A stretch of 23,401 bases of DNA from a virus (Duplodnaviria; Heunggongvirae; Uroviricota; Caudoviricetes), in IMG/VR virus record IMGVR_UViG_2667528074_000003, positions 1 to 23,401 of that record; one strand, 5' to 3'. Below, one piece after another: positions 2,286 to 22,468 of the stretch; the first letter of the stretch is position 1; each line of letters starts with the position of its first letter. The position numbers and the translations under genes are program-made. The notes beneath the pieces were generated by a model. The model was not told the origin of the DNA. It was given only the letters and a program-made list of their open reading frames with translations, and ran no database searches.

Positions 2286-5200
2286 ATGAACAGGACCAGT
2301 CCCCATTATTGTCGCCGCTCAGTACTTTCCTTATTGATATCTGCCTTGATATATGCCCCGCCTGGGATGACGGCCTTCACTCCTGATGTTATTGGTGTGG
2401 TAAACGATGAGACTGTAGATGGCAGCCAAAGAGTAGATGAACGAGGTACAACAAATAACACTCATATTATCAACCATGGCCAGCAGAATGTTCATGGCGG
2501 GGTATCTAATGGAAGTCTTATTGAATCGGGTGGATATCAAGATGTAGGAAGTCATAACAATTTTGTGGGGCAGGCTAATAATACAACCATTAACGGAGGA
2601 AGACAGACAATTCATGACGGGGGCATTTCCACCGGTACGATAATCGACAGTGGCAATCAGGACGTTTATACAGGTGGTATCAGCAATGGAACGACAATTA
2701 AGGGTGGTAATTCACACATAAGTGGGGGGACTGCGAATGGAACCATCATTGATGGTGGAGGGCAGAAAGTAACAACTCAGGGGCATGTTGATGGTACAAC
2801 GATAAATAAGTCCGGTTATCAGGACATCACGCAAGGAAGTATTGCAACGAACACAATCATAAATGGTGGACGACAGTATGTTGAACAGAGCACAGTAGGA
2901 ACAACCACCATTAAAAATGGCGGTGAGCAAAGAGTATATGAAAGCCATGCGCTGGACACGACGATTGAAGGTGGAACTCAGTCTCTGAATAATAAGTCAA
3001 CGGCAAAAATACTCAGATCTATTCTGGTGGTACGCAAATTGTTGATTACACCAGCTCCTCGGATGTTATTGAAGTTTATTCCGGTGGCGTGCTTGATGTT
3101 AGTGGTGGTACGGCAACAAATGTTACCCAGCACGATGGTGCAATTTTAAAAACAAACACTAACGGTACGACGGTGAGCGGTACGAATAGTGAAGGTGCAT
3201 TCTCCATCCACAATCACGTGGCAGACAATGTGTTGCTGGAAAACGGTGGTCATTTAGACATAAACGCATATGGTTCGGCAAACAAGACGATTATTAAAGA
3301 TAAAGGAACAATGTCAGTTTTAACGAATGCTAAAGCTGATGCGACCCGAATAGATAACGGCGGGGTAATGGATGTTACCGGAAACGCGACCAATACCATA
3401 ATCAATGGTGGTACACAGAATATTAATAATCATGGTATTGCCACGGGTACCAATATCAACGGCGGAACGCAAAATATCAAGAGCGGCGGGAAAGCTGACA
3501 CGACAATTATATCCTCCGGGAGCCGGCAGGTTGTTGAGAAAGATGGTACGGCAACTGGCAGCAATATTAGCGCCGGAGGCTCGCTGATTGTCTATACCGG
3601 TGGTATTGCACATGGGGTTAACCAGGAGACGGGCAGTGCTTTAGTTGCCAACACGGGCGCAGGGACTGATATTGAAGGATACAACAAGCTCTCTCACTTC
3701 ACTATTACCGGAGGGGAGGCTAATTATGTTGTGCTGGAAAATACCGGCGAACTGACGGTAGTGGCTAAAACCTCGGCGAAAAATACTACCGTTGATGCTG
3801 GCGGTAAGCTGATTGTCCAGAAGGAGGCTAAAACAGATACCACCAGACTTAATAATGGTGGCGTTCTGGAGGTTCAGGACGGTGGTGAGGCTAAGCATGT
3901 TGAGCAACAATCCGGCGGCGCATTAATTGCTTCCACAACTTCCGGAACCCTTATCGAAGGAACCAACAGTTATGGTGATGCTTTCTACATCAGGAATTCA
4001 GAAGCTAAAAATGTAGTGCTGGAAAACGCTGGCTCATTAACAGTCGTCACTGGTTCCCGGGCAGTTGATACGATTATTAATGCCAACGGCAAAATGGATG
4101 TTTATGGAAAAGATGTTGGCACTGTACTCAATAGTGCTGGCACCCAAACAATATATGCCAGTGCCACTTCTGATAAAGCAAATATCAAAGGTGGCAAGCA
4201 AACGGTATATGGATTAGCCACTGAGGCAAATATCGAAAGTGGTGAACAAATTGTTGATGGTGGGTCAACAGAGAAAACACACATCAATGGTGGCACGCAA
4301 ACCGTTCAGAATTATGGTAAGGCAATCAATACCGATATCGTCTCTGGCCTACAACAAATTATGGCAAACGGGACAGCGGAAGGTTCCATTATTAATGGGT
4401 GTTCACAGGTAGTTAATGAGGGCGGTCTGGCTGAAAACTCGGTGCTTAATGACGGCGGCACACTCGATGTGCGGGAGAAAGGCAGCGCAACGGGGATACA
4501 GCAGAGTAGCCAGGACGCTTTGGTTGCAACCACCAGGGCGACGCGGGTCACAGGAACACGCGCGGATGGCGTCGCGTTCAGCATCGAGCAGGGTGCGGCG
4601 AACAATATCCTGCTGGCAAATGGCGGCGTGTTAACCATGGAGTCAGACACCTCTTCTGACAAAACACAGGTCAATACGGGCGGACGGGAGATCGTCAAAA
4701 CAAAAGCCACTGCGACAGGCACGACGCTCACCGGCGGCGAACAAATCGTCGAGGGGGTGGCGAATGAGACAACGATTAACGACGGCGGAATACAAACAGT
4801 TTCAGCTAACGGAGAGGCAATAAAAACAAAGATCAATGAAGGCGGTACGCTGACAGTTAACGATAATGGCAAAGCGACAGATATCGTCCAGAACAGCGGT
4901 GCCGCTCTCCAGACGAGCACGGCTAACGGTATTGAAATCAGCGGTACTCACCAGTACGGCACTTTTTCCATTTCCGGCAATTTAGCGACCAATATGTTGC
5001 TGGAAAATGGCGGTAATTTATTGGTATTAGCAGGTACCGAAGCTCGCGACTCCACGGTTGGCAGCGGTGGAGCCGCCAACGGCAGTTATCGCAGCAACGG
5101 GCTGGGCGGTCACATTGAAACCGGGATGCGATTTACCGATGGTAACTGGAACCTGACGCCGTATGCATCGTTAACGGGGGTTCACCGCTGATAACCCTGA

Positions 5201-8046: not shown

Positions 8047-8874
8047 TTATTTAATCTGGATAAATGGTGTATTGGCACCACTGGTCATGTATTGCGGCAG
8101 TGTACCGTTCCACTTGTTGATGGCTTCCAGTTCCATGACGCCTGGGTTCTGGCGCAGAGCTTCGCCGCGTAAACGAATGGCATCGGCTTCTGCCTGGGCT
8201 TTTGTACGAATCGCATCAGCCTGTCCGGCAGCTTCCGCGCGCAGCATGTTGGCTTCCGCTTCGCGCTGTTTTACTTCCTGCTCGCGTTGCAGGGTTTTCT
8301 GGTTCGCCGTGACTTTGGCATTAATGCTGTCGATAACGGTTGGCGGGTATTCCGGCTTACCCACATATGAGAGGCTCATTACCTGAATACCAATGGGTGT
8401 CATTTCTTCCTGAATGTCTTTGAGAGCTGCATCCAGAAGTTCAGACTTACCGCCGTCGATAAATTTGTCGGTGGTCATTTTGCTGGCCAGTCGGTTGAGT
8501 GCATCTGCGATCTTCTGGCGCAGGTCTGTGTCGGTAATGTCATCCACGCCTTTGCGGTAGGTCTGAAACACCGTGGTAACTTTGGATGGATCAACTTTGT
8601 AGGCCACACCGATGTGATAGCCGATGGTTGTACCGTCACTCATCTGGAAACTGAACGGTTCATCGTAGGTCTTCATTTGTTTGAAGGTGGGGAAGATATA
8701 AACTTCAGTATTCCAGCCAGTCCAGTAGCGACCAACACCGACCACCTCACCGACGCCTTTGTCGTCGCCCAGTTTATTTACCTTGATGCCAACATTACCT
8801 GGTTCAACGCGATCGCAACCGACAAGGCCAATGGTCGGAATAACAATGGCTAAAGCAAAAATAACTTTTTTCAT
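8047..8874 (-). CDS. SPFH/band-7 (stomatin-prohibitin-flotillin-HflK/C) domain lipoprotein
   Basis: 275 aa; N-terminal signal with lipobox (MKKVIFALAIVIPTIGLVGC); SPFH-like core; C-terminal Ala/Glu/Arg/Gln-rich coiled coil (QREQEVKQREAEANMLRAEAAGQADAIRTKAQAEADAIRLRGEAL); AAGGA RBS; ATGA overlap with the upstream gene. Confidence 0.8.
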   Translation of the reverse strand: MKKVIFALAIVIPTIGLVGCDRVEPGNVGIKVNKLGDDKGVGEVVGVGRYWTGWNTEVYIFPTFKQMKTYDEPFSFQMSDGTTIGYHIGVAYKVDPSKVTTVFQTYRKGVDDITDTDLRQKIADALNRLASKMTTDKFIDGGKSELLDAALKDIQEEMTPIGIQVMSLSYVGKPEYPPTVIDSINAKVTANQKTLQREQEVKQREAEANMLRAEAAGQADAIRTKAQAEADAIRLRGEALRQNPGVMELEAINKWNGTLPQYMTSGANTPFIQIK

Positions 8875-9059
8875 CTTTTATCCTTAGTGAAAGAAAGACC
8901 CTTGTAAATGGCATAAATGCAGGGCGGGGTCAGAAACGCCAGTGCAAAGCCGGAAATGACTGCTACCGTATCCTTCATGGATATAAGGAACGGGACGAGT
9001 AGTCCGTAAATGCATGCGATAATTGCCAGTAAAATTACTATTCTGAAATACAATCTCAT
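8871..9059 (-). CDS. small two-helix membrane protein, translationally coupled to the SPFH lipoprotein
   Basis: 62 aa with two hydrophobic stretches (IVILLAIIACIYGLLVPFLI and VISGFALAFLTPPCIYAIY); its stop overlaps the SPFH start (ATGA). Weak RBS. Confidence 0.55.
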   Translation of the reverse strand: MRLYFRIVILLAIIACIYGLLVPFLISMKDTVAVISGFALAFLTPPCIYAIYKGLSFTKDKR

Positions 9060-10597: not shown

Positions 10598-11055
10598 GCG
10601 CAAGTATCTCCAGCTGTTGGTTTACCGGTTAACAGCCACATCGGATCGCAACCAAGAACATTTGCCAGCGGGATAAGCATACTGATAGTTGGTTCATACT
10701 CTCCGCTCTCCCACTGGATGATGATATCTTCATCGAGATCGAGCAGACTGGCGAGTTCGGCTGTTGTTAAGCCGCAGGCTTCGCGTTGGGTGCGAAGGTT
10801 AACCAGCCAGCTTTTAGGGAAGGATTGTTTTTGTTGTGCAGGAGAAGCCGCAGATAGAGCATATTCATGGATAAATTCCATTACCTCAATGCCCAGTTCC
10901 TTTGAGCGAGCACAATCCAGAAGATGGAATGTGCGTACAGCACTTAGCAAATTTGCAATATTTAATGCAAAGGAATCAAGTTCTAAGCCCTTAAGCGTAA
11001 CACAGCCGCAGTTGATAAAATTAGTTGTTTCTGGAGTTGCGTTTAGTGTCTTCAT
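10594..11055 (-). CDS. two-domain regulator: N-terminal domain of unknown function plus C-terminal XRE-type helix-turn-helix
   Basis: 153 aa; C-terminal HTH LRTQREACGLTTAELASLLDLDEDIIIQWESGEYEPTISMLIPLANVLGCDPMWLL; first gene downstream of the pL-like promoter; RBS GGTGGA. Confidence 0.65.
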   Translation of the reverse strand: MKTLNATPETTNFINCGCVTLKGLELDSFALNIANLLSAVRTFHLLDCARSKELGIEVMEFIHEYALSAASPAQQKQSFPKSWLVNLRTQREACGLTTAELASLLDLDEDIIIQWESGEYEPTISMLIPLANVLGCDPMWLLTGKPTAGDTCA

Positions 11056-11108
11056 ATATCCACCAACAATTTTAAATTGAACTAAATCAAGTTATAATTG
11101 ATGGTGCG

Positions 11109-11137
11109 ATATTATGCTTTGAGAAATAGGCTGTCAA
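11109..11137 (-). promoter_or_regulatory. sigma70 promoter for the leftward early operon (pL analogue)
   Basis: Minus strand: TTGACA, 17-nt spacer, TAATAT, placed between the cI terminator and the 153-aa gene; leader contains palindromes ATCAA-N7-TTGAT and CAATTTAAAATTG. Confidence 0.5.
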
Positions 11138-11165
11138 GAAAAAATTGATATCGTGTGTTTTAGGC

Positions 11166-11189
11166 AGAAAAAAACGGGCAAAGCCCGTT
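11166..11189 (-). terminator. rho-independent terminator downstream of cI
   Basis: Minus strand AACGGGC-TTT-GCCCGTT followed by a T tract, starting 12 nt after the cI stop. Confidence 0.6.
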
Positions 11190-11200
11190 AAAATCAAAGA

Positions 11201-11890
11201 CTAACCAAATCTGTTTATATTGAATGGTACTGATGAGATCACTTTAGACTGGATATAAAGCAGAGCTAACCCCTCTTTTTCGATGCTCCATGGTTGATAA
11301 TTGGGGTTATCAGATAACACCATGATTTTGCTTCCAATTTTTTGAAGTCTTTTCACGTAGCATTCTCCATCAAAACAAAATGCATAAATGCCATCGCCAT
11401 CAAAATAAGTTACTGTCTTATCAAGAAAAAGAAGGTCGCCAGGTGAGATTGTGGGAGCCATACTGTCTCCTCTGGCGTTGCCTATTTCTATATTTTTAAA
11501 TGCTCGGTTTCCAACAAGACGACGGGCATATTCAGGATCAAGTTCTATTGAGCGTACTACATCTATAAAGTCTCCGCGGACATGGGTCCCATTACCGCAA
11601 CTAAATTCAACGTCAAGTACATTAAACACGACGCTATCTGTTCTTGCCTGATGTTTCTCTTGCGAAGAGAAGGTTGGTGAGGTGTCTTCACCTAAGAACC
11701 AGGATTGTGGATAACCGCTAATCTCTGATAACTGCGCAAGCTTATCGCTCCGTGGAAATGTTTTTCCTGTGGTCCAGTACTGCACTGATTGCGCACTCAC
11801 CCCCAGCTTACGGGCCAGCTGAGCCTGAGTCCATCCTTTTGCTTTCAGCATTGCGGCTATTCTATTTTCTGTGTTTTTGACGTTCTTCAT
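11201..11890 (-). CDS. cI: CI-type prophage repressor (N-terminal HTH plus C-terminal S24/LexA-like autopeptidase)
   Basis: 229 aa; HTH WTQAQLARKLGVSAQSVQYW; S24 motifs GDSMAPTISPGD (Ser nucleophile) and CYVKRLQK (Lys); divergent from a cro-like gene. Confidence 0.85.
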   Translation of the reverse strand: MKNVKNTENRIAAMLKAKGWTQAQLARKLGVSAQSVQYWTTGKTFPRSDKLAQLSEISGYPQSWFLGEDTSPTFSSQEKHQARTDSVVFNVLDVEFSCGNGTHVRGDFIDVVRSIELDPEYARRLVGNRAFKNIEIGNARGDSMAPTISPGDLLFLDKTVTYFDGDGIYAFCFDGECYVKRLQKIGSKIMVLSDNPNYQPWSIEKEGLALLYIQSKVISSVPFNINRFG

Positions 11891-12023
11891 GACCAGGTCC
11901 CGTGGGTTTCTTTACAAGGGTAAATCTTTACTTGATTTTAGTGTATTCGATCCTTTTGCAACTTGCATGTTAATTTAAACTTGATGTATTCTTGATTCAT
12001 TAAGTTTATCTTGGTGATTTGTT
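11891..12023. promoter_or_regulatory. immunity-region operator/promoter interval between cI and cro (OR analogue)
   Basis: 133-bp divergent intergenic region with four CTTGAT-type repeats (ACTTGATTTTA, ACTTGATGTAT, TCTTGATTCAT, TCTTGGTGATT) and palindrome TTTACaaggGTAAA; the same ACTTGAT motif recurs in the pL leader. Exact -35/-10 not resolved. Confidence 0.5.
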
Positions 12024-12296
12024 ATGAAAGGAAATGATTACGACGAACTTCGTGCATTAATTGCGCAAAATGCCATAGCGCGAAATCTTGGTGTGACACC
12101 GCAAGCGGTGAATCAGTGGTTTTCAAAAAGCACAATTCCTGCTCGTTTCGTTTTACGGGTATGTGAGGTGGTTGCATGGAAGGTTACGCCTCATGGCTTA
12201 AGGCCAGATCTTTACCCTCACCCTGAAGATGGAATTCCTGATTCGTTACGCAAAACATCAAATCCAAGCTTAGCGCACACGGGGGAGGGGAGGTAA
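12024..12296 (+). CDS. cro: Cro-like small HTH regulator (YdaS/Cro type)
   Basis: 90 aa, divergent from cI; HTH-like LGVTPQAVNQWF; RBS GGTGA 6 nt upstream. Confidence 0.7.
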   Translation: MKGNDYDELRALIAQNAIARNLGVTPQAVNQWFSKSTIPARFVLRVCEVVAWKVTPHGLRPDLYPHPEDGIPDSLRKTSNPSLAHTGEGR

Positions 12297-12302
12297 GGAA
12301 GT

Positions 12303-12431
12303 ATGAACGAAGAACGAATCGAATGCATTCTTGAGGCCATATCAGCCCTTACCGACGAAGAGATTCAGGAGGCAAGGACTGTTGCTGAAAAAACAGCCTT
12401 AGCTTTGGGATTTTCGGTTAATCCTGGTTGA
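12303..12431 (+). CDS. hypothetical small protein (42 aa) translationally coupled to cro
   Basis: Not in the ORF track; ATG 12303 lies 6 nt after the cro stop with RBS AAGGAAG; translation MNEERIECILEAISALTDEEIQEARTVAEKTALALGFSVNPG. Confidence 0.4.
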   Translation: MNEERIECILEAISALTDEEIQEARTVAEKTALALGFSVNPG

Positions 12432-12645
12432 TGGAGTTATCCAGAACGGCAGCGATGTATTCACACATATCCTGTCCTCGCTCCCTCTGCTGTTGCGGCT
12501 GACTTTTCAGGTTTTTAATTAACTCCATTCCGGATGCTGCGAGCTTTATTCGCTCTTGGATGGGAAGGGACGACAGCAATAAACCAAGTAATGCCTCAAG
12601 GCCGTCTAGCTTGGTTTCAACGCTGAATTTAGTTGTATCAGTCAT
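12418..12645 (-). CDS. hypothetical protein (75 aa) convergent with and overlapping the 3' end of the cro operon
   Basis: ATG 12645 preceded by AAGGAAA and by an extended -10 promoter; helical, charged sequence; overlaps the 42-aa ORF by 14 nt. Confidence 0.45.
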   Translation of the reverse strand: MTDTTKFSVETKLDGLEALLGLLLSSLPIQERIKLAASGMELIKNLKSQPQQQRERGQDMCEYIAAVLDNSINQD

Positions 12646-12678
12646 AGGTAATTTCCTTACTGGTTGTGTGAGAACTCC

Positions 12679-12715
12679 AGTATACCACCGAGCCTGAAGT
12701 GGTTAAAAGACAGGC
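12679..12715 (-). promoter_or_regulatory. leftward extended -10 promoter (TGGTATACT)
   Basis: Minus strand TGG-TATACT about 25 nt upstream of the RBS of the 75-aa ORF; weak -35 (TTAACC). Confidence 0.45.
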
Positions 12716-12940
12716 AAATTGAAGAGGCTAACCATGACTCCAGAAGAATTTATCTGCAAACACATAACGGAAAAGCTGGTGGCGGAGGGCTTCCCTGAAA
12801 TTGTTGCCAGGGGGGGGCATGCCGGGGACTGGATTACTACCGCCGTAGCTCGCAGGCCAGCCGCAAAGGAGCGATGTTTAATGATTGCTTGTTTCGTGCG
12901 CGGCAATGGGCACTTGGTCAGACAAATGTTACTGAGCGAA

Positions 12941-12984
12941 AGGAAAAGAAAAAGCCGGGCCGGATTAAGGTGGGCCAGCCCGGC
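12941..12984 (-). terminator. rho-independent terminator for leftward transcripts
   Basis: Minus strand GCCGGGCTGG..loop..CCGGCCCGGC (10 bp including one G-U) followed by TTTTTCTTTTCC. Confidence 0.4.
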
Positions 12985-13129
12985 CTGTCCTGACTTACCT
13001 TTGGAATCAACCTTCAAGGAGCTGTTCCATGATAAACGCCCGATTAATCACTGATCCTGACCGCCAACCGGAGGGCATTAATCACCAGACTGGAAAAGGC
13101 CTCAATCATCTGACTAAAGGACATTGATC

Positions 13130-13441
13130 ATGCTTAACATTAGCAGCACTCAAAAATTAGTCAACCCTTCAGATCCTGTTGGACAAATTCCGGTCGAACA
13201 GTGGTACAGAAGAACGTACGTGGTTTCAGAGTACGCCCGCACTTATACCGAGACAATTATCGGAAAGGCCAAATGCCCCTGTTCCGCAGCTGTGAATGGT
13301 GCGATGGCAATACGTAACGCCAATCCTTCGGTTTTATCCATCCGTTTTATAAGTATTGAGCAGCTTTCTCCTGAAGAAGGAGAGGCCAGCGAGCGCGCCC
13401 TTAACGCCTGGTTTGAGAAACATCCTGAGGAGATTGAATGA
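13130..13441 (+). CDS. hypothetical protein (103 aa) coupled to the downstream Rha-like gene
   Basis: ATG 13130 (the track TTG at 13124 is less likely); stop overlaps the ATG of gene 13438-14148. Confidence 0.5.
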   Translation: MLNISSTQKLVNPSDPVGQIPVEQWYRRTYVVSEYARTYTETIIGKAKCPCSAAVNGAMAIRNANPSVLSIRFISIEQLSPEEGEASERALNAWFEKHPEEIE

Positions 13442-14148
13442 TGAACACCGCAATTTTTAACGACAAAGTATCCATGACCAGCGTTGAAATCGCAGAGCTG
13501 GTTGGAAGTCAACACGGCAATGTCAGAATATCAATAGAGCGTCTGGCAAAACGCGGGGTGATTCAACTTCCTGCAATGCAAAAAGTTGAGAACGAACAAT
13601 CATTTAGCCAAAACAAATTCACAAACGCATATATTTTCGAAGGCGAACAAGGCAAACGCGACAGCATCATTGTCGTCGCACAACTTTGCCCGGAATTCAC
13701 TGCCCGCCTGGTAGATCGTTGGCGCGAACTGGAAGAGCAGGTGCGCAAACCAATGAGCGAAATCGAAATGGTTGCCGCGATGGCTCTTGAAGTAGTTCGT
13801 CAGCAAAAACGCCTCGACAAGATGGAAGAAAAAGTTAGCCACGTTGCCGAAACTGTCGAACAAATCAAAAGAGGCACCATACGCGATGGTTATGCAGGAT
13901 ACCGTCAGCTGGTGGCGAAAACAGGTATGTCAGATGCTAAATGCCGCAATCTGGTGAACGCATATCAGATCCCTACCGACACCCATGAATTTATGACGCC
14001 AGACGGATTATTGTCTCGTCGCGCGATTGTTGCAGTAGAACCCTTCATGTTTGCTTTTCATCGCATGATGAGTGAAGCAGAACCACGAGGTACTCGCTGG
14101 TATCACCCGAAAATGGGCCTGTTTCAGGCGCTGGGCTGGCAGGTGTAA
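13438..14148 (+). CDS. phage regulatory / antirepressor-like protein with N-terminal Rha-type DNA-binding region
   Basis: 236 aa; N-terminal MTSVEIAELVGSQHGNVRISIERL ... RWRELEEQ resembles the N-terminus of phage Rha/antirepressor proteins as I recall them; C-terminal half unassigned. Confidence 0.65.
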   Translation: MMNTAIFNDKVSMTSVEIAELVGSQHGNVRISIERLAKRGVIQLPAMQKVENEQSFSQNKFTNAYIFEGEQGKRDSIIVVAQLCPEFTARLVDRWRELEEQVRKPMSEIEMVAAMALEVVRQQKRLDKMEEKVSHVAETVEQIKRGTIRDGYAGYRQLVAKTGMSDAKCRNLVNAYQIPTDTHEFMTPDGLLSRRAIVAVEPFMFAFHRMMSEAEPRGTRWYHPKMGLFQALGWQV

Positions 14149-14362
14149 TTATGCTCACAGGTAACACATGCAAGTACTCAATCGCTGGTTCCGCGATGGC
14201 AGAGGGCGTCGCGTCCACGTTATACACTGGGAGTCTGAAACACAGCGGGTCATTTACCTGCGTGATGGTTATTCGCATGAATGCTTCAGTCCGTTGTGGT
14301 TGTTTCGTCGTGATTTTGTGGAGTGTGAAGCGCCGCCAGAGTGACGGCGTAATGGTGGAAAC

Positions 14363-14671
14363 TTACACGAAGCGGATCTGGAGTTTTTTTCCTGTTGCGC
14401 GGGCAAATTTTTTCAGTGTGGAAAATGATGGTCCACTGACACCTGACGCCAGATTACTTTCCATTCTGCTGATGACAGTTGCTTTGGTTCCCATACGCTC
14501 AGCGATCTCAGCTTGGGTTAAACCAGCTTCTTTACGTGCTGCCAGCATTTCATCAAGCAACGCAAATTCGTCGGCGATGGCGTCGTATTCTGCTTTAAAA
14601 GCTGGATCCTCCATCCATTTATCAGCCATTTCATCATGTGTAATGGTTGGCGGATTACGTTTACCAGTCAT
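14363..14671 (-). CDS. HigA-like antitoxin (XRE HTH)
   Basis: 102 aa with HTH GLTQAEIAERMGTKATVISRMESN; immediately downstream of and overlapping (11 nt) the toxin gene, the toxin-first order typical of HigBA modules. Confidence 0.8.
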   Translation of the reverse strand: MTGKRNPPTITHDEMADKWMEDPAFKAEYDAIADEFALLDEMLAARKEAGLTQAEIAERMGTKATVISRMESNLASGVSGPSFSTLKKFARATGKKLQIRFV

Positions 14672-14990
14672 GCTTTACCTCCTTCATTCTGGTTTCAGCT
14701 TTTTGGCGTTCGGCTGGTGGGGTTTTCTGGGTCTTCTTGATGAAACTATGCAGCATGATGATGCGTTTTCCTGCCAGGGTGCAGTAAAAGACGCGTGCGA
14801 TGCCATCACTACCTTTAATCCGAAGCTCGAAAAGCCCGTTACCGAAAGCACTGGTATGAGGTTCTCCGAGATTGCTGCCGTATACCTTCATGCGTTCAAC
14901 AAGATGCTGGTATCGGGCACGCATACTCAATGGAAGCTGGTCGACCTCCAGCCTGACCTCTTCACTGTAGTATTCGATAGTGTAGTTCAT
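14661..14990 (-). CDS. HigB/RelE-superfamily toxin (phage gp49-like mRNA interferase family)
   Basis: 109 aa; characteristic motifs NGLFELRIKGSDGIARVFYC and IMLHSFIKKTQKTP. Confidence 0.8.
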   Translation of the reverse strand: MNYTIEYYSEEVRLEVDQLPLSMRARYQHLVERMKVYGSNLGEPHTSAFGNGLFELRIKGSDGIARVFYCTLAGKRIIMLHSFIKKTQKTPPAERQKAETRMKEVKHDW

Positions 14991-20857: not shown

Positions 20858-21961
20858 TTAGAACTGGTATACCATACCTACAGCAACGATATCGTCAGTG
20901 TTTACACCAAGAGCTTTAGTAAAGTCATTTTTGTCAAGCAGGTTGATTTTGTAATCAACGAAGGTAGACATATTTTTGTTGAAATAATAAGTTGCGCCAA
21001 CATCAACATATTTGACTAAATCCTGGTCACCAAAAATGCCAAGATCTTTACCTTTTGATTGCAGATAAGCAACAGACGGACGCAGACCGAAATCGAACTG
21101 ATATTGTGCAACAGCTTCGAAGTTTTGTGCTTTATTAGCCACAAAGTAATCTGCGAATTTAGTCATATTCTGGGTTTCTGAATAGGTTGTTGCCAGATAA
21201 ACGTTGTTTGCGTCGTATTTCAGACCTGCAGCCCAGACTTCTGCATTTTCGCCGGAAGCAAATACTCCTGGGAGAAGTTTACCCAATTTGACTTGAGTGT
21301 CGGTACGATCAGATTTCGCATACGTTGCACCAATGCCGAAACCTTCGTATTCATAGGTCGCAGAGAAACCAAAACCATCGCCATTGCCTTTGGTGTAGTT
21401 ATCTAAGCTACTACGATCATGATTATTCTTACCCTGGTACTGTGCAGCAAAATTCAGACCATCAACCAGACCAAAGAAGTCGTTGTTACGATAAGTTGCA
21501 ACACCAGTGGTACGACCAGTCATGAATACATCTGTTTGGGTCCAGGTATCTCCACCGAATTCTGGCAGGACGTCAGTCCATGCACCGATATCGTATGCTA
21601 CACCGTAGTTACGACCGTAATCGACGGAGCCGTAGTCACCGAATTTAAGCCCTGCAAATGCAAGACGGGTTTTATCTTTGGCTGCTCCCTGTTCTTCAGT
21701 ACGGTTTCCTTTGAATTCATATTCCCACTGACCGAAACCAGTCAGTTGATCGTTGATCTGAGTTTCGCCTTTGAAACCCAGACGAGCATAAGTTGTGTCG
21801 CCATCATTTGCATCGTTAGAGGAGAAGTAGTGCTTAGCATTAACTTTTCCGTACAGATCCAACTTGTTGCTGTCTTTATTATAAATCTCTGCTGCCTGAG
21901 CAGACATCGCCATCAGTACTGATGCAGCCACAGCAGAAATTGCCACCGTTAATTTTTTCAT
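20858..21961 (-). CDS. outer-membrane general porin of the OmpC/OmpF/PhoE family (phage-borne NmpC/Lc-like)
   Basis: 367 aa; signal peptide [23 protein letters not shown] then AEIYNKD...; near-colinear with OmpC as I recall it ([38 protein letters not shown], terminal MVYQF); opposite orientation to the phage operons; AT-rich upstream region. Confidence 0.9.
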
Positions 21962-22468
21962 CACGAACCCTTTTTTTTGAACTATTTTTAAAAAATGATG
22001 TCACTGCGCGATAAATATTCATCTAATCAATGTGGTTATTTCAAGAGTCAAGTTTAATTTAGTGATTGATAATATGATCAAGATCTCATTTATGCGCGTT
22101 GGTATAATTTGTTGATATTTTTGTGTAATGCGGAATTTAATTAATGAAATACATTATTTACTCATTTTTCATTGAAAAATAACAATGATGTATTTGATGT
22201 AATATGTGTTATTCGTATGTTTTGTTTTGTTATATTGCATTAACATTTGAGTGGCGTATTTGTGGTTTACGTACGTAAAAATTCAATTATGATGTTAAGA
22301 GTGGTTGCTTCGACTCCTTCCTTAAAACCGCCGTCGGGCTGTTTTTTGTACCCGAAAAACGGCACAGGACGTTAAACGTGCTGGTGGTTGCGAATACTGG
22401 TCTTTCAGCTTGCTGGCTTTTTCGACAAGAGTTATTGGTATGTCACGTTAACCAGAAAGGAAAAAGAC

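Follow-up and report, generated by a model that had tools for sequence, protein, structure and literature searches.

The sieB gene of phage P22, whose transcription unit is reportedly the subject of a study by Ranade and Poteete (1993), runs against the operon in which it lies. Both P22 and lambda carry sieB reversed in a repressor-controlled early-left operon just after its first gene (24-[sieB]-ral and N-[sieB]-ral, respectively), and ymfI of the K-12 element e14 has the same placement (ymfJ-[ymfI]-ymfH). Expression of sieB from the P22 prophage has been described (PMC10883804), ymfI is SOS-induced weakly and late with ymfJ being strongly induced (PMC11002266), and the phi80 tai gene (taiEcA) is a prophage defense gene reversed against the Q-dependent late operon (PMC11364771). 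Here we describe a locus of this general kind in a 23,401-nucleotide (nt) stretch of viral DNA (IMG/VR record IMGVR_UViG_2667528074_000003, positions 1 to 23,401; hereafter the window), which derives from an Escherichia coli lambdoid prophage, with strains EC11 and C5 at 99.9% identity. In the window a leftward promoter and a short leader precede a gene for a 75-amino acid (aa) protein (12418-12645, minus strand) located behind the cro-like gene. We think it probable that the unit is an accessory ('moron'-type) cassette of the sieB/ymfI kind, transcribed autonomously and expressed in the lysogen, which lies reversed as an insert at the start of the early-right (pR) operon. The kind of element is already known; new in the window are its cargo, the arrangement of its −10 and its host operon.

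Promoter and leader of the 75-aa gene

Reading of the sequence and a promoter scan agree on the layout of the minus strand, which is TTAACC, a 16-nt spacer and TG-G-TATACT (12706-12679). The −35 hexamer TTAACC (12706-12701) is supplied by a 35-nt core, TGCCTGTCTTTTAACCACTTCAGGCTCGGTGGTAT (12682-12716, minus strand), and the same core supplies the TG of the extended −10, TGGTATACT (12679-12687, with the TG at 12687-12686 and TATACT at 12684-12679), which the scan scores at 9/12 when the TG is counted. The transcription start is predicted from the sequence at about 12675-12671, and the resulting 5′ leader of about 25 nt (12646-12672), which fold prediction leaves unstructured, contains a Shine-Dalgarno sequence, AAGGA (12658-12654), 8 nt 5′ of the ATG at 12645.

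Taken alone, the motif is at chance frequency, with four promoter-like sites in 3 kb against 4.8 expected from shuffles, and 16 occurrences of TGNTATNNT in the window against 14 expected. The promoter is credible because of its conservation across relatives rather than because of its motif. In the hetero-immune relative RMDEC465 the promoter and leader (12646-12702) are 100% identical to those of the window and the flanking open reading frames (ORFs) and module are about 90% identical, and an 84-nt stretch (12633-12716) recurs at about 91% identity in Rac-SA53-type prophages and Klebsiella phages, in front of unrelated ORFs. As judged from sequence, it is a credible and apparently activator-independent promoter of the sigma-70 type, with a weak −35 and a TG-extended −10. 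The first-pass annotation of this DNA had proposed a strong-looking extended −10 firing leftward from about 12672 and not activator-dependent in appearance; the layout is confirmed and conservation makes the promoter credible, with the motif itself at chance level, and the TG-extended TATACT without cII boxes at the −35 agrees with the second point.

A family of cassettes that share the core

A 33-nt stretch of the core recurs with 97% identity in lambda, P22, HK620, VT1-Sakai and numerous P22-like phages of Salmonella, and lies directly upstream of sieB in both lambda and P22. The core sequence TGCCTGTCTTTTNNCCACTTNAGGCTCGGTGGTAT was found in at least 119 viral contigs by an exact-pattern scan; the core is present in 133 phage records and in 1761 of 5426 complete E. 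coli genomes, with up to five copies per genome, and there is no annotated feature under it among the 12 E. coli genome matches listed.

In 157 of the 171 loci that contain the core together with TATNNT, each oriented by the core, the −10 hexamer is followed at 29-36 nt by a start codon that has a Shine-Dalgarno sequence. The ORFs so opened belong to 16 families without BLASTP links to one another, ranging from 40 to 163 aa but mostly 60-113 aa, and include YmfI of K-12 e14, rac10 of Rac-SA53, an 81-aa ORF of SfV, a 63-aa ORF of SfII and the zinc-ribbon family of ECs_2282, as well as the 75-aa protein described here. The hexamers across these cassettes are TATCCT, TATACT, TATGCT, TATTCT or TATCTT; the fourth and fifth positions vary, and the last T is kept in all but one of 161 TATNNN hexamers tallied. 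Retrieval based on SieB, intended for loci with diverged cores, yielded K-12-like Rac copies only, and scans anchored on the flanks rather than on the core were used in its place. In this smaller but unbiased sample TATNNT is found where an ORF begins about 30 nt away, and at none of the loci with a long leader (the sieB types). TATNNT thus behaves as would be expected of a genuine −10.

The window follows the short-leader design of the ymfI type, with the core, TG-TATNNT, a leader of about 25 nt, a Shine-Dalgarno sequence and an ATG 29-36 nt from the hexamer, as do e14 ymfI, Rac-SA53 rac10, and the SfV/SfII and ECs_2282-family ORFs. These genes resemble that of the window in two further respects, since the cargoes are small (60-113 aa) and have a convergent, overlapping neighbor. 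They differ in lying on the early-left side, convergent with or antisense to the repressor gene, and in encoding proteins unrelated to the 75-aa protein.

The comparison with sieB is also one of shared and unshared features. The 97% identical core and the placement of a reversed gene just after the first gene of a repressor-controlled early operon (N or 24, and cro in the window) are common to both. In contrast, the window cargo is an unrelated 75-aa protein, predicted to be soluble and helical, and SieB is 162-192 aa; the host operon is pR rather than pL; no equivalents of esc or sas are evident in the window; and the −10 of the window abuts the core and is followed by a 25-nt leader, whereas that of P22 lies further on. 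In the P22 record (BK000583) the core at 29652-29684 is followed by the sieB promoter at 29690-29720 and an RNA start at 29727, and in place of the TGGTATACT of the window, lambda and P22 both have TGGTTCTCG. By this comparison, the promoter of the window appears to be a short-leader variant of the sieB promoter region and not the mapped promoter itself. A tblastn search with K-12 SieB gave no match near any of 127 cores, and the window cargo is not a SieB homologue. The core upstream of the K-12 Rac sieB is diverged, and the start of kilS (a small RNA) and kilR is back to back with it (locus L127, 1906-2110), so that in Rac-type prophages the cassette promoter and the early-left promoter are divergent neighbors rather than opposed.

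Some of these loci are annotated differently in public records. A Klebsiella phage (L007, 2675-2986) has an annotated 102-aa ORF on the strand opposite its zinc-ribbon cargo, orf33 of SfV (L130, 2501-2960) overlaps the 81-aa cargo, and gp050 of Salmonella phage sal3 (L133, 1746-2162) has its annotated start upstream of the promoter core. A literature search returned no account of a shared cassette serving as a hotspot for cargoes, or of the diversity of those cargoes, which is absence of evidence only.

The 75-aa protein gene

The gene (12418-12645; RefSeq WP_000132761.1, 'hypothetical protein') appears both in the ORF list and in the RefSeq annotation. In pairwise comparisons of the informative pairs among eight loci, the ratio of nonsynonymous to synonymous substitution rates (dN/dS) in the 75-aa frame is 0.13-0.36, and it is 0.7 or more in the other frames, the exception being the antisense frame with coinciding third codon positions, which is not open. 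This pattern identifies the well-initiated ORF seen at first pass as a genuine small protein gene under purifying selection, as far as sequence comparison can tell. The earlier question of its conservation is answered by close relatives in five 90%-identity clusters, all from E. coli, and by four remote homologues (74-88 aa) among 1.8 billion representatives, in which length and pattern are kept down to about 32% identity. AlphaFold2 predicts a three-helix bundle (helices 9-26, 29-48 and 51-74) with a mean predicted local distance difference test score (pLDDT) of 76, and a Foldseek search of PDB and BFVD with this model gave no match with E below 2. Homology to the rac10 family was considered and rejected, with no alignment by BLASTP and an hhalign probability of 1%.

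Genomic context and a proposed mechanism

The 75-aa gene opposes the rightward early operon, the first gene of which is the cro-like gene (12024-12296, plus strand; YdaS/Cro family). That gene matches Pfam YdaS_toxin (1.2e-12) and, weakly, P22_Cro, and is annotated as Cro in related phages. The cI-like repressor gene (11201-11890, minus strand; helix-turn-helix [HTH] and S24 peptidase by Pfam) is in the same sense as the cassette. This geometry is not the usual one. Among 127 loci with the core surveyed for context, a cI-like gene lies downstream in the opposite sense in 44, recE-type early-left genes diverge upstream in 39, and the cassette is behind cro with a same-sense repressor in only about six (the window, EC11, RMDEC465, STEC307 and two viral contigs). 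Usually the cassette is sited between the repressor gene and the early-left genes, where it runs antisense to cI, as in lambda, P22, e14, SfV and Rac-SA53, and the window has the mirror image of this in the early-right operon, cro-orf42-[orf75 reversed]-orf106. All close homologues of the 75-aa gene are at the post-cro site, and a homologue with 50% protein identity is found, convergent with cI, at the usual site. In STEC307 the shared DNA is confined to the right of 12679, and the cargo is an unrelated 85-aa ORF.

Phages with the same cI and cro, namely PhiR49_2 (94%) and Stx2 phages (80%, for example Stx2_14040), pass directly from cro to a Roi/Rha gene, with a Rha product 79% identical to that of the window, and lack the cassette. 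The segment 12297-13437 (plus strand), comprising orf42, the reversed 75-aa cassette and ORFs of 106 and 103 aa, is thus an insert, and the cassette is dispensable for that immunity circuit. RMDEC465 has the same module together with a different repressor and cro. The cassette therefore shows the presence and absence between otherwise similar phages that is found with morons and excludons such as phi80 taiEcA, and it resembles these also in having its own promoter, in running against the flow of a phage operon, and in the expectation that it is active in the lysogen and turned off by opposing transcription in the lytic phase. It differs from the phi80 gene in lying in an early rather than a late operon, and in having a promoter that is a portable element shared by many cargoes.

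We propose the following mechanism. The conserved sigma-70 promoter and short open leader would drive synthesis of the 75-aa three-helix protein. In the lysogen cI would hold pR off, so that the leftward promoter is unopposed and the protein is made. Upon induction or infection, strong pR transcription would cross the cassette on its way to the genes for Rha, replication and Q; it must do so because neither a terminator between cro and the downstream genes nor a restart promoter is predicted on the plus strand. This pR transcription would silence the cassette promoter head-on, by collision and antisense pairing, in the manner of an 'excludon' or 'non-contiguous operon'. The cassette transcript would itself be complementary to the RNA of orf42 and, over some distance, to that of cro, and may damp leaky pR expression, but such damping of cro would be a by-product of the insertion site and not a conserved purpose. 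The 75-aa protein most likely serves the prophage or its host in lysogeny, for example in exclusion or defense, although this is a guess from the class of position (sieB, phi80 tai), and orf42 could be its lytic-phase partner.

Several observations weigh against reading the locus as a lysogen-expressed cassette of the sieB/ymfI kind. First, the annotated sieB −10 of P22 (TAAACT) and its RNA start are located about 35-43 nt downstream of the core, and because they lie further on, the −10 of the window is a different, unmapped solution. Second, most of the cassette loci were gathered with a pattern requiring GGTGGTAT, so that only two features, the final −10 position and the spacing to the ORF, are free of bias. 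Third, the 75-aa protein has no match in Pfam, PHROG, PADLOC, NCBIfam, PDB or BFVD, and the three-helix model, which comes from a shallow alignment, is only moderately confident. Finally, no terminator for the cassette is predicted on the minus strand between 12418 and 11190, and a hairpin in the predicted fold of 12280-12440 lacks a U-run, which is unlike the textbook moron.

The overlapping orf42

The 42-aa ORF (orf42; 12303-12431, plus strand), which is in the ORF list and is annotated in EC11, begins 7 nt after the cro stop codon with a GGAGG/AAGGA Shine-Dalgarno sequence and overlaps the 75-aa ORF tail to tail by 14 nt, confirming that the latter is convergent with, and overlaps, a cro-coupled small ORF. 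In relatives orf42 is open as 42, 46 or 71 aa, with a ratio of nonsynonymous to synonymous polymorphism (pN/pS) of 0.32-0.48, which lends weak support to its being a coding sequence. It is called beside the 75-aa gene at loci L137-L141 and is intact at L002, but is not called at L136; its product is without match in PADLOC, NCBIfam, Pfam and PHROGs. At first pass the overlapping pair was thought to be unexplained by the canonical immunity-region model. The convergence is real, but convergent 3′ overlap is normal for this cassette: K-12 RNA-seq lists ymfI-ymfJ and sieB-ydaF as convergent overlapping units, or excludons (PMC12288877), and rac10 and rac11 overlap convergently too.

These arrangements suggest, by analogy with sieB/esc or phi80 tai/ati, a possible two-gene module, in which the 75-aa protein would act in the lysogen, the 42-aa protein would be made from pR in the lytic phase as its antidote, and the overlap would enforce exclusive expression. 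The presence of orf42 as a called or intact frame at most close-homologue loci, the convergent partners in other cassettes and the tai/ati precedent (PMC11364771) are all consistent with such a pairing. We hold it only tentatively, given that the convergent partners are unrelated between cassettes, that the remote 75-aa homologue is paired with a different, 104-aa partner, that at L139 the orf42 stop codon is lost to give the 71-aa form, and that toxin-antitoxin and defense models match neither the 75-aa nor the 42-aa protein.

Inverted repeats in the core

The core contains two interleaved inverted repeats on the minus strand, the first GCCTG (12715-12711) with CAGGC (12696-12692) and the second, of the type A core, ACCAC (12703-12699) with GTGGT (12688-12684). 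Versions of the core that differ in sequence but follow conserved flanks at the same position retain a GC-rich stem of 5-6 bp in nine of ten variants, with shuffle tests for the stem giving p values of 0.02-0.18 per variant. The K-12 Rac stem is GCCCGG/CCGGGC, and the others are GTGCCG/CGGCAC, CCCTGA/TCAGGG, GCTGG/CCAGC, GCCGG/CCGGC and TGCTG/CAGCA; stem-keeping versions were seen at L127 (2060-2105), L251, L276, L245, L232 and L235.

This retention, the conservation of the core in lambda and P22 even though it is upstream of the annotated sieB promoter, and the mosaic breakpoints at or inside the core (for example at 12679 in STEC307) would fit a core that is primarily something other than a promoter, such as a structured DNA or RNA element, a protein-binding site or a recombination joint, with the promoter activity of the short-leader variants being secondary. 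We regard this as doubtful. The fold energy of the core is unremarkable, and an Rfam scan of 11000-14500 at E≤1 found a chance snoRNA match only, with no small RNA or riboswitch. Neither strand is favored, because single-base variants give G.U pairs in opposite orientations. Moreover, TATNNT is present whenever an ORF starts about 30 nt away and absent from the long-leader sieB types, which argues for promoter use. The stem may be a protein site, a DNA structure or a recombination joint.

Other roles for the core were considered and rejected. It does not resemble a terminator, since it has no U-run in either orientation. As a plus-strand antitermination site of the nut or put type (post-cro here and on the pL side elsewhere) it has no boxA- or boxB-like conservation and an ordinary fold, and the Rac early-left start (kilS) is beyond the core. 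The sal3-type flank beside the core (L133, L145 and L228-L255; ATGCCTTGCTCGTCAATNCTCTCATCGTTGTG) includes, on the early-sense strand, a motif resembling a tRNA T-arm, GGTTCGATTCC; a reading as a tRNA or tRNA fragment was rejected, ARAGORN and Rfam being negative.

Relationship to lambda pRE

The first-pass annotation had interpreted the leftward promoter as a possible unit for establishment of repression or for antisense control, in which a transcript through cro into cI helps to establish or reinforce repression and the 75-aa ORF is a coding leader. The geometry is indeed correct in the window, as coordinates and strands would place the transcript antisense to orf42 and cro and in the same sense as cI, and both pRE and the pO/oop antisense RNA of lambda are comparable leftward units downstream of cro. 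The only terminator predicted on the minus strand by a terminator scan is after cI (11189-11173), so read-through into cI is physically possible, and the close homologues of the 75-aa gene all retain the post-cro position. However, the approximately 530 nt from the stop codon of the 75-aa ORF to cI are untranslated and richer in C than in G (C/G 1.44, then 1.24), which makes Rho-dependent termination before cI plausible.

Nonetheless, it seems unlikely that the unit is a counterpart of pRE. First, the repressor is antisense to the cassette at 44 loci and sense at 5, the remote 75-aa homologue is in the antisense geometry, and iso-immune phages are without the unit; a function that needs to reach cI is not the conserved function of the cassette, because the cassette usually points the other way. 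Second, the cII site TTGC-N6-TTGC is absent at the −35, its sole occurrence in the window being at 3551-3564; the −35 region reads TTGC-CTGTCT-TTTA, the first tetramer varies in relatives (GTGC, ATGC), and no cII-like family was found by Pfam in the eight neighboring ORFs scanned. Third, the −10 looks constitutive and the transcript would have its own translated ORF, both in contrast to pRE. Control by the immunity repressor was likewise rejected, as there is no copy of the OR operator repeats near the promoter. A pRE-like role is therefore not supported, and antisense damping of cro is possible.

That the locus is simply a chance motif beside a spurious ORF is hardly credible, in spite of the chance frequency of the motif in the window and the lack of a recognizable protein family, in view of the purifying selection on the 75-aa frame, the remote homologues that keep its length and pattern, and the conservation of promoter and leader across hundreds of genomes at a fixed distance from the ORF.

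Neighboring genes

To the right of the cassette are plus-strand ORFs of 106 aa (12734-13054) and 103 aa (13130-13441), followed by a Rha-family gene, a reversed RelE/HTH pair, ash, replication genes and the Q antiterminator gene. The 106-aa ORF contains a run of eight G residues (12810-12817); in STEC307 its frame is interrupted at the G tract, after 39 aa, RMDEC465 annotates 84 aa, and the match to PHROG 4439 covers residues 1-28 only, which points to either a frameshift-prone gene or a decaying one. The RelE/ParE-type toxin and its HTH partner (14363-14990, minus strand) form a second reversed unit in the same early-right operon, and because RMDEC465 has a TumE/HVO_A0114 pair at this site, it is another exchangeable head-on slot. 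Further features were noted at about 8150-8910 and 20858-21964. A reversed ompC-like porin gene adjoins the Q antiterminator gene. At the left edge of the prophage potB is joined to a tail-fiber assembly gene beside the early-left genes, with no integrase on that side, and the integrase of EC11 is next to mlrA, over 30 kb to the right; the left-edge junction and the distant integrase suggest that the prophage is rearranged.

Implications

The observations can be drawn together in a broader but speculative reading, to which we give little weight as a whole. The core and leader would be a portable expression cassette that marks an unrecognized hotspot next to the immunity region in lambdoid prophages of enterobacteria, delivering at least 16 families of tiny lysogen-expressed proteins (the 75-aa three-helix protein being one), many of which may be new exclusion, defense or host-modulating factors, and the hairpin of the core would have its own role in regulation or exchange. 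In the window the cassette would have been transplanted behind cro, where it would feed back on the lysis-lysogeny switch, with orf42 as a lytic antidote.

The locus itself is ordinary, being a prophage accessory gene with its own promoter, and its wider use is in what the core makes visible. Present in about one third of complete E. coli genomes and unannotated among the matches listed, the core is a cheap sequence flag that shows where, and on which strand, small prophage genes truly start; public annotation often has their strand or start wrong. The genes so flagged encode diverse uncharacterized proteins of 60-113 aa in the slot of sieB, and provide a list of candidates for anti-phage or lysogeny functions. 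The window adds a natural experiment on how head-on transcription affects a lysis-lysogeny switch, in which the cassette opposes pR behind cro rather than pL, and for which iso-immune phages without the insert are available for comparison.

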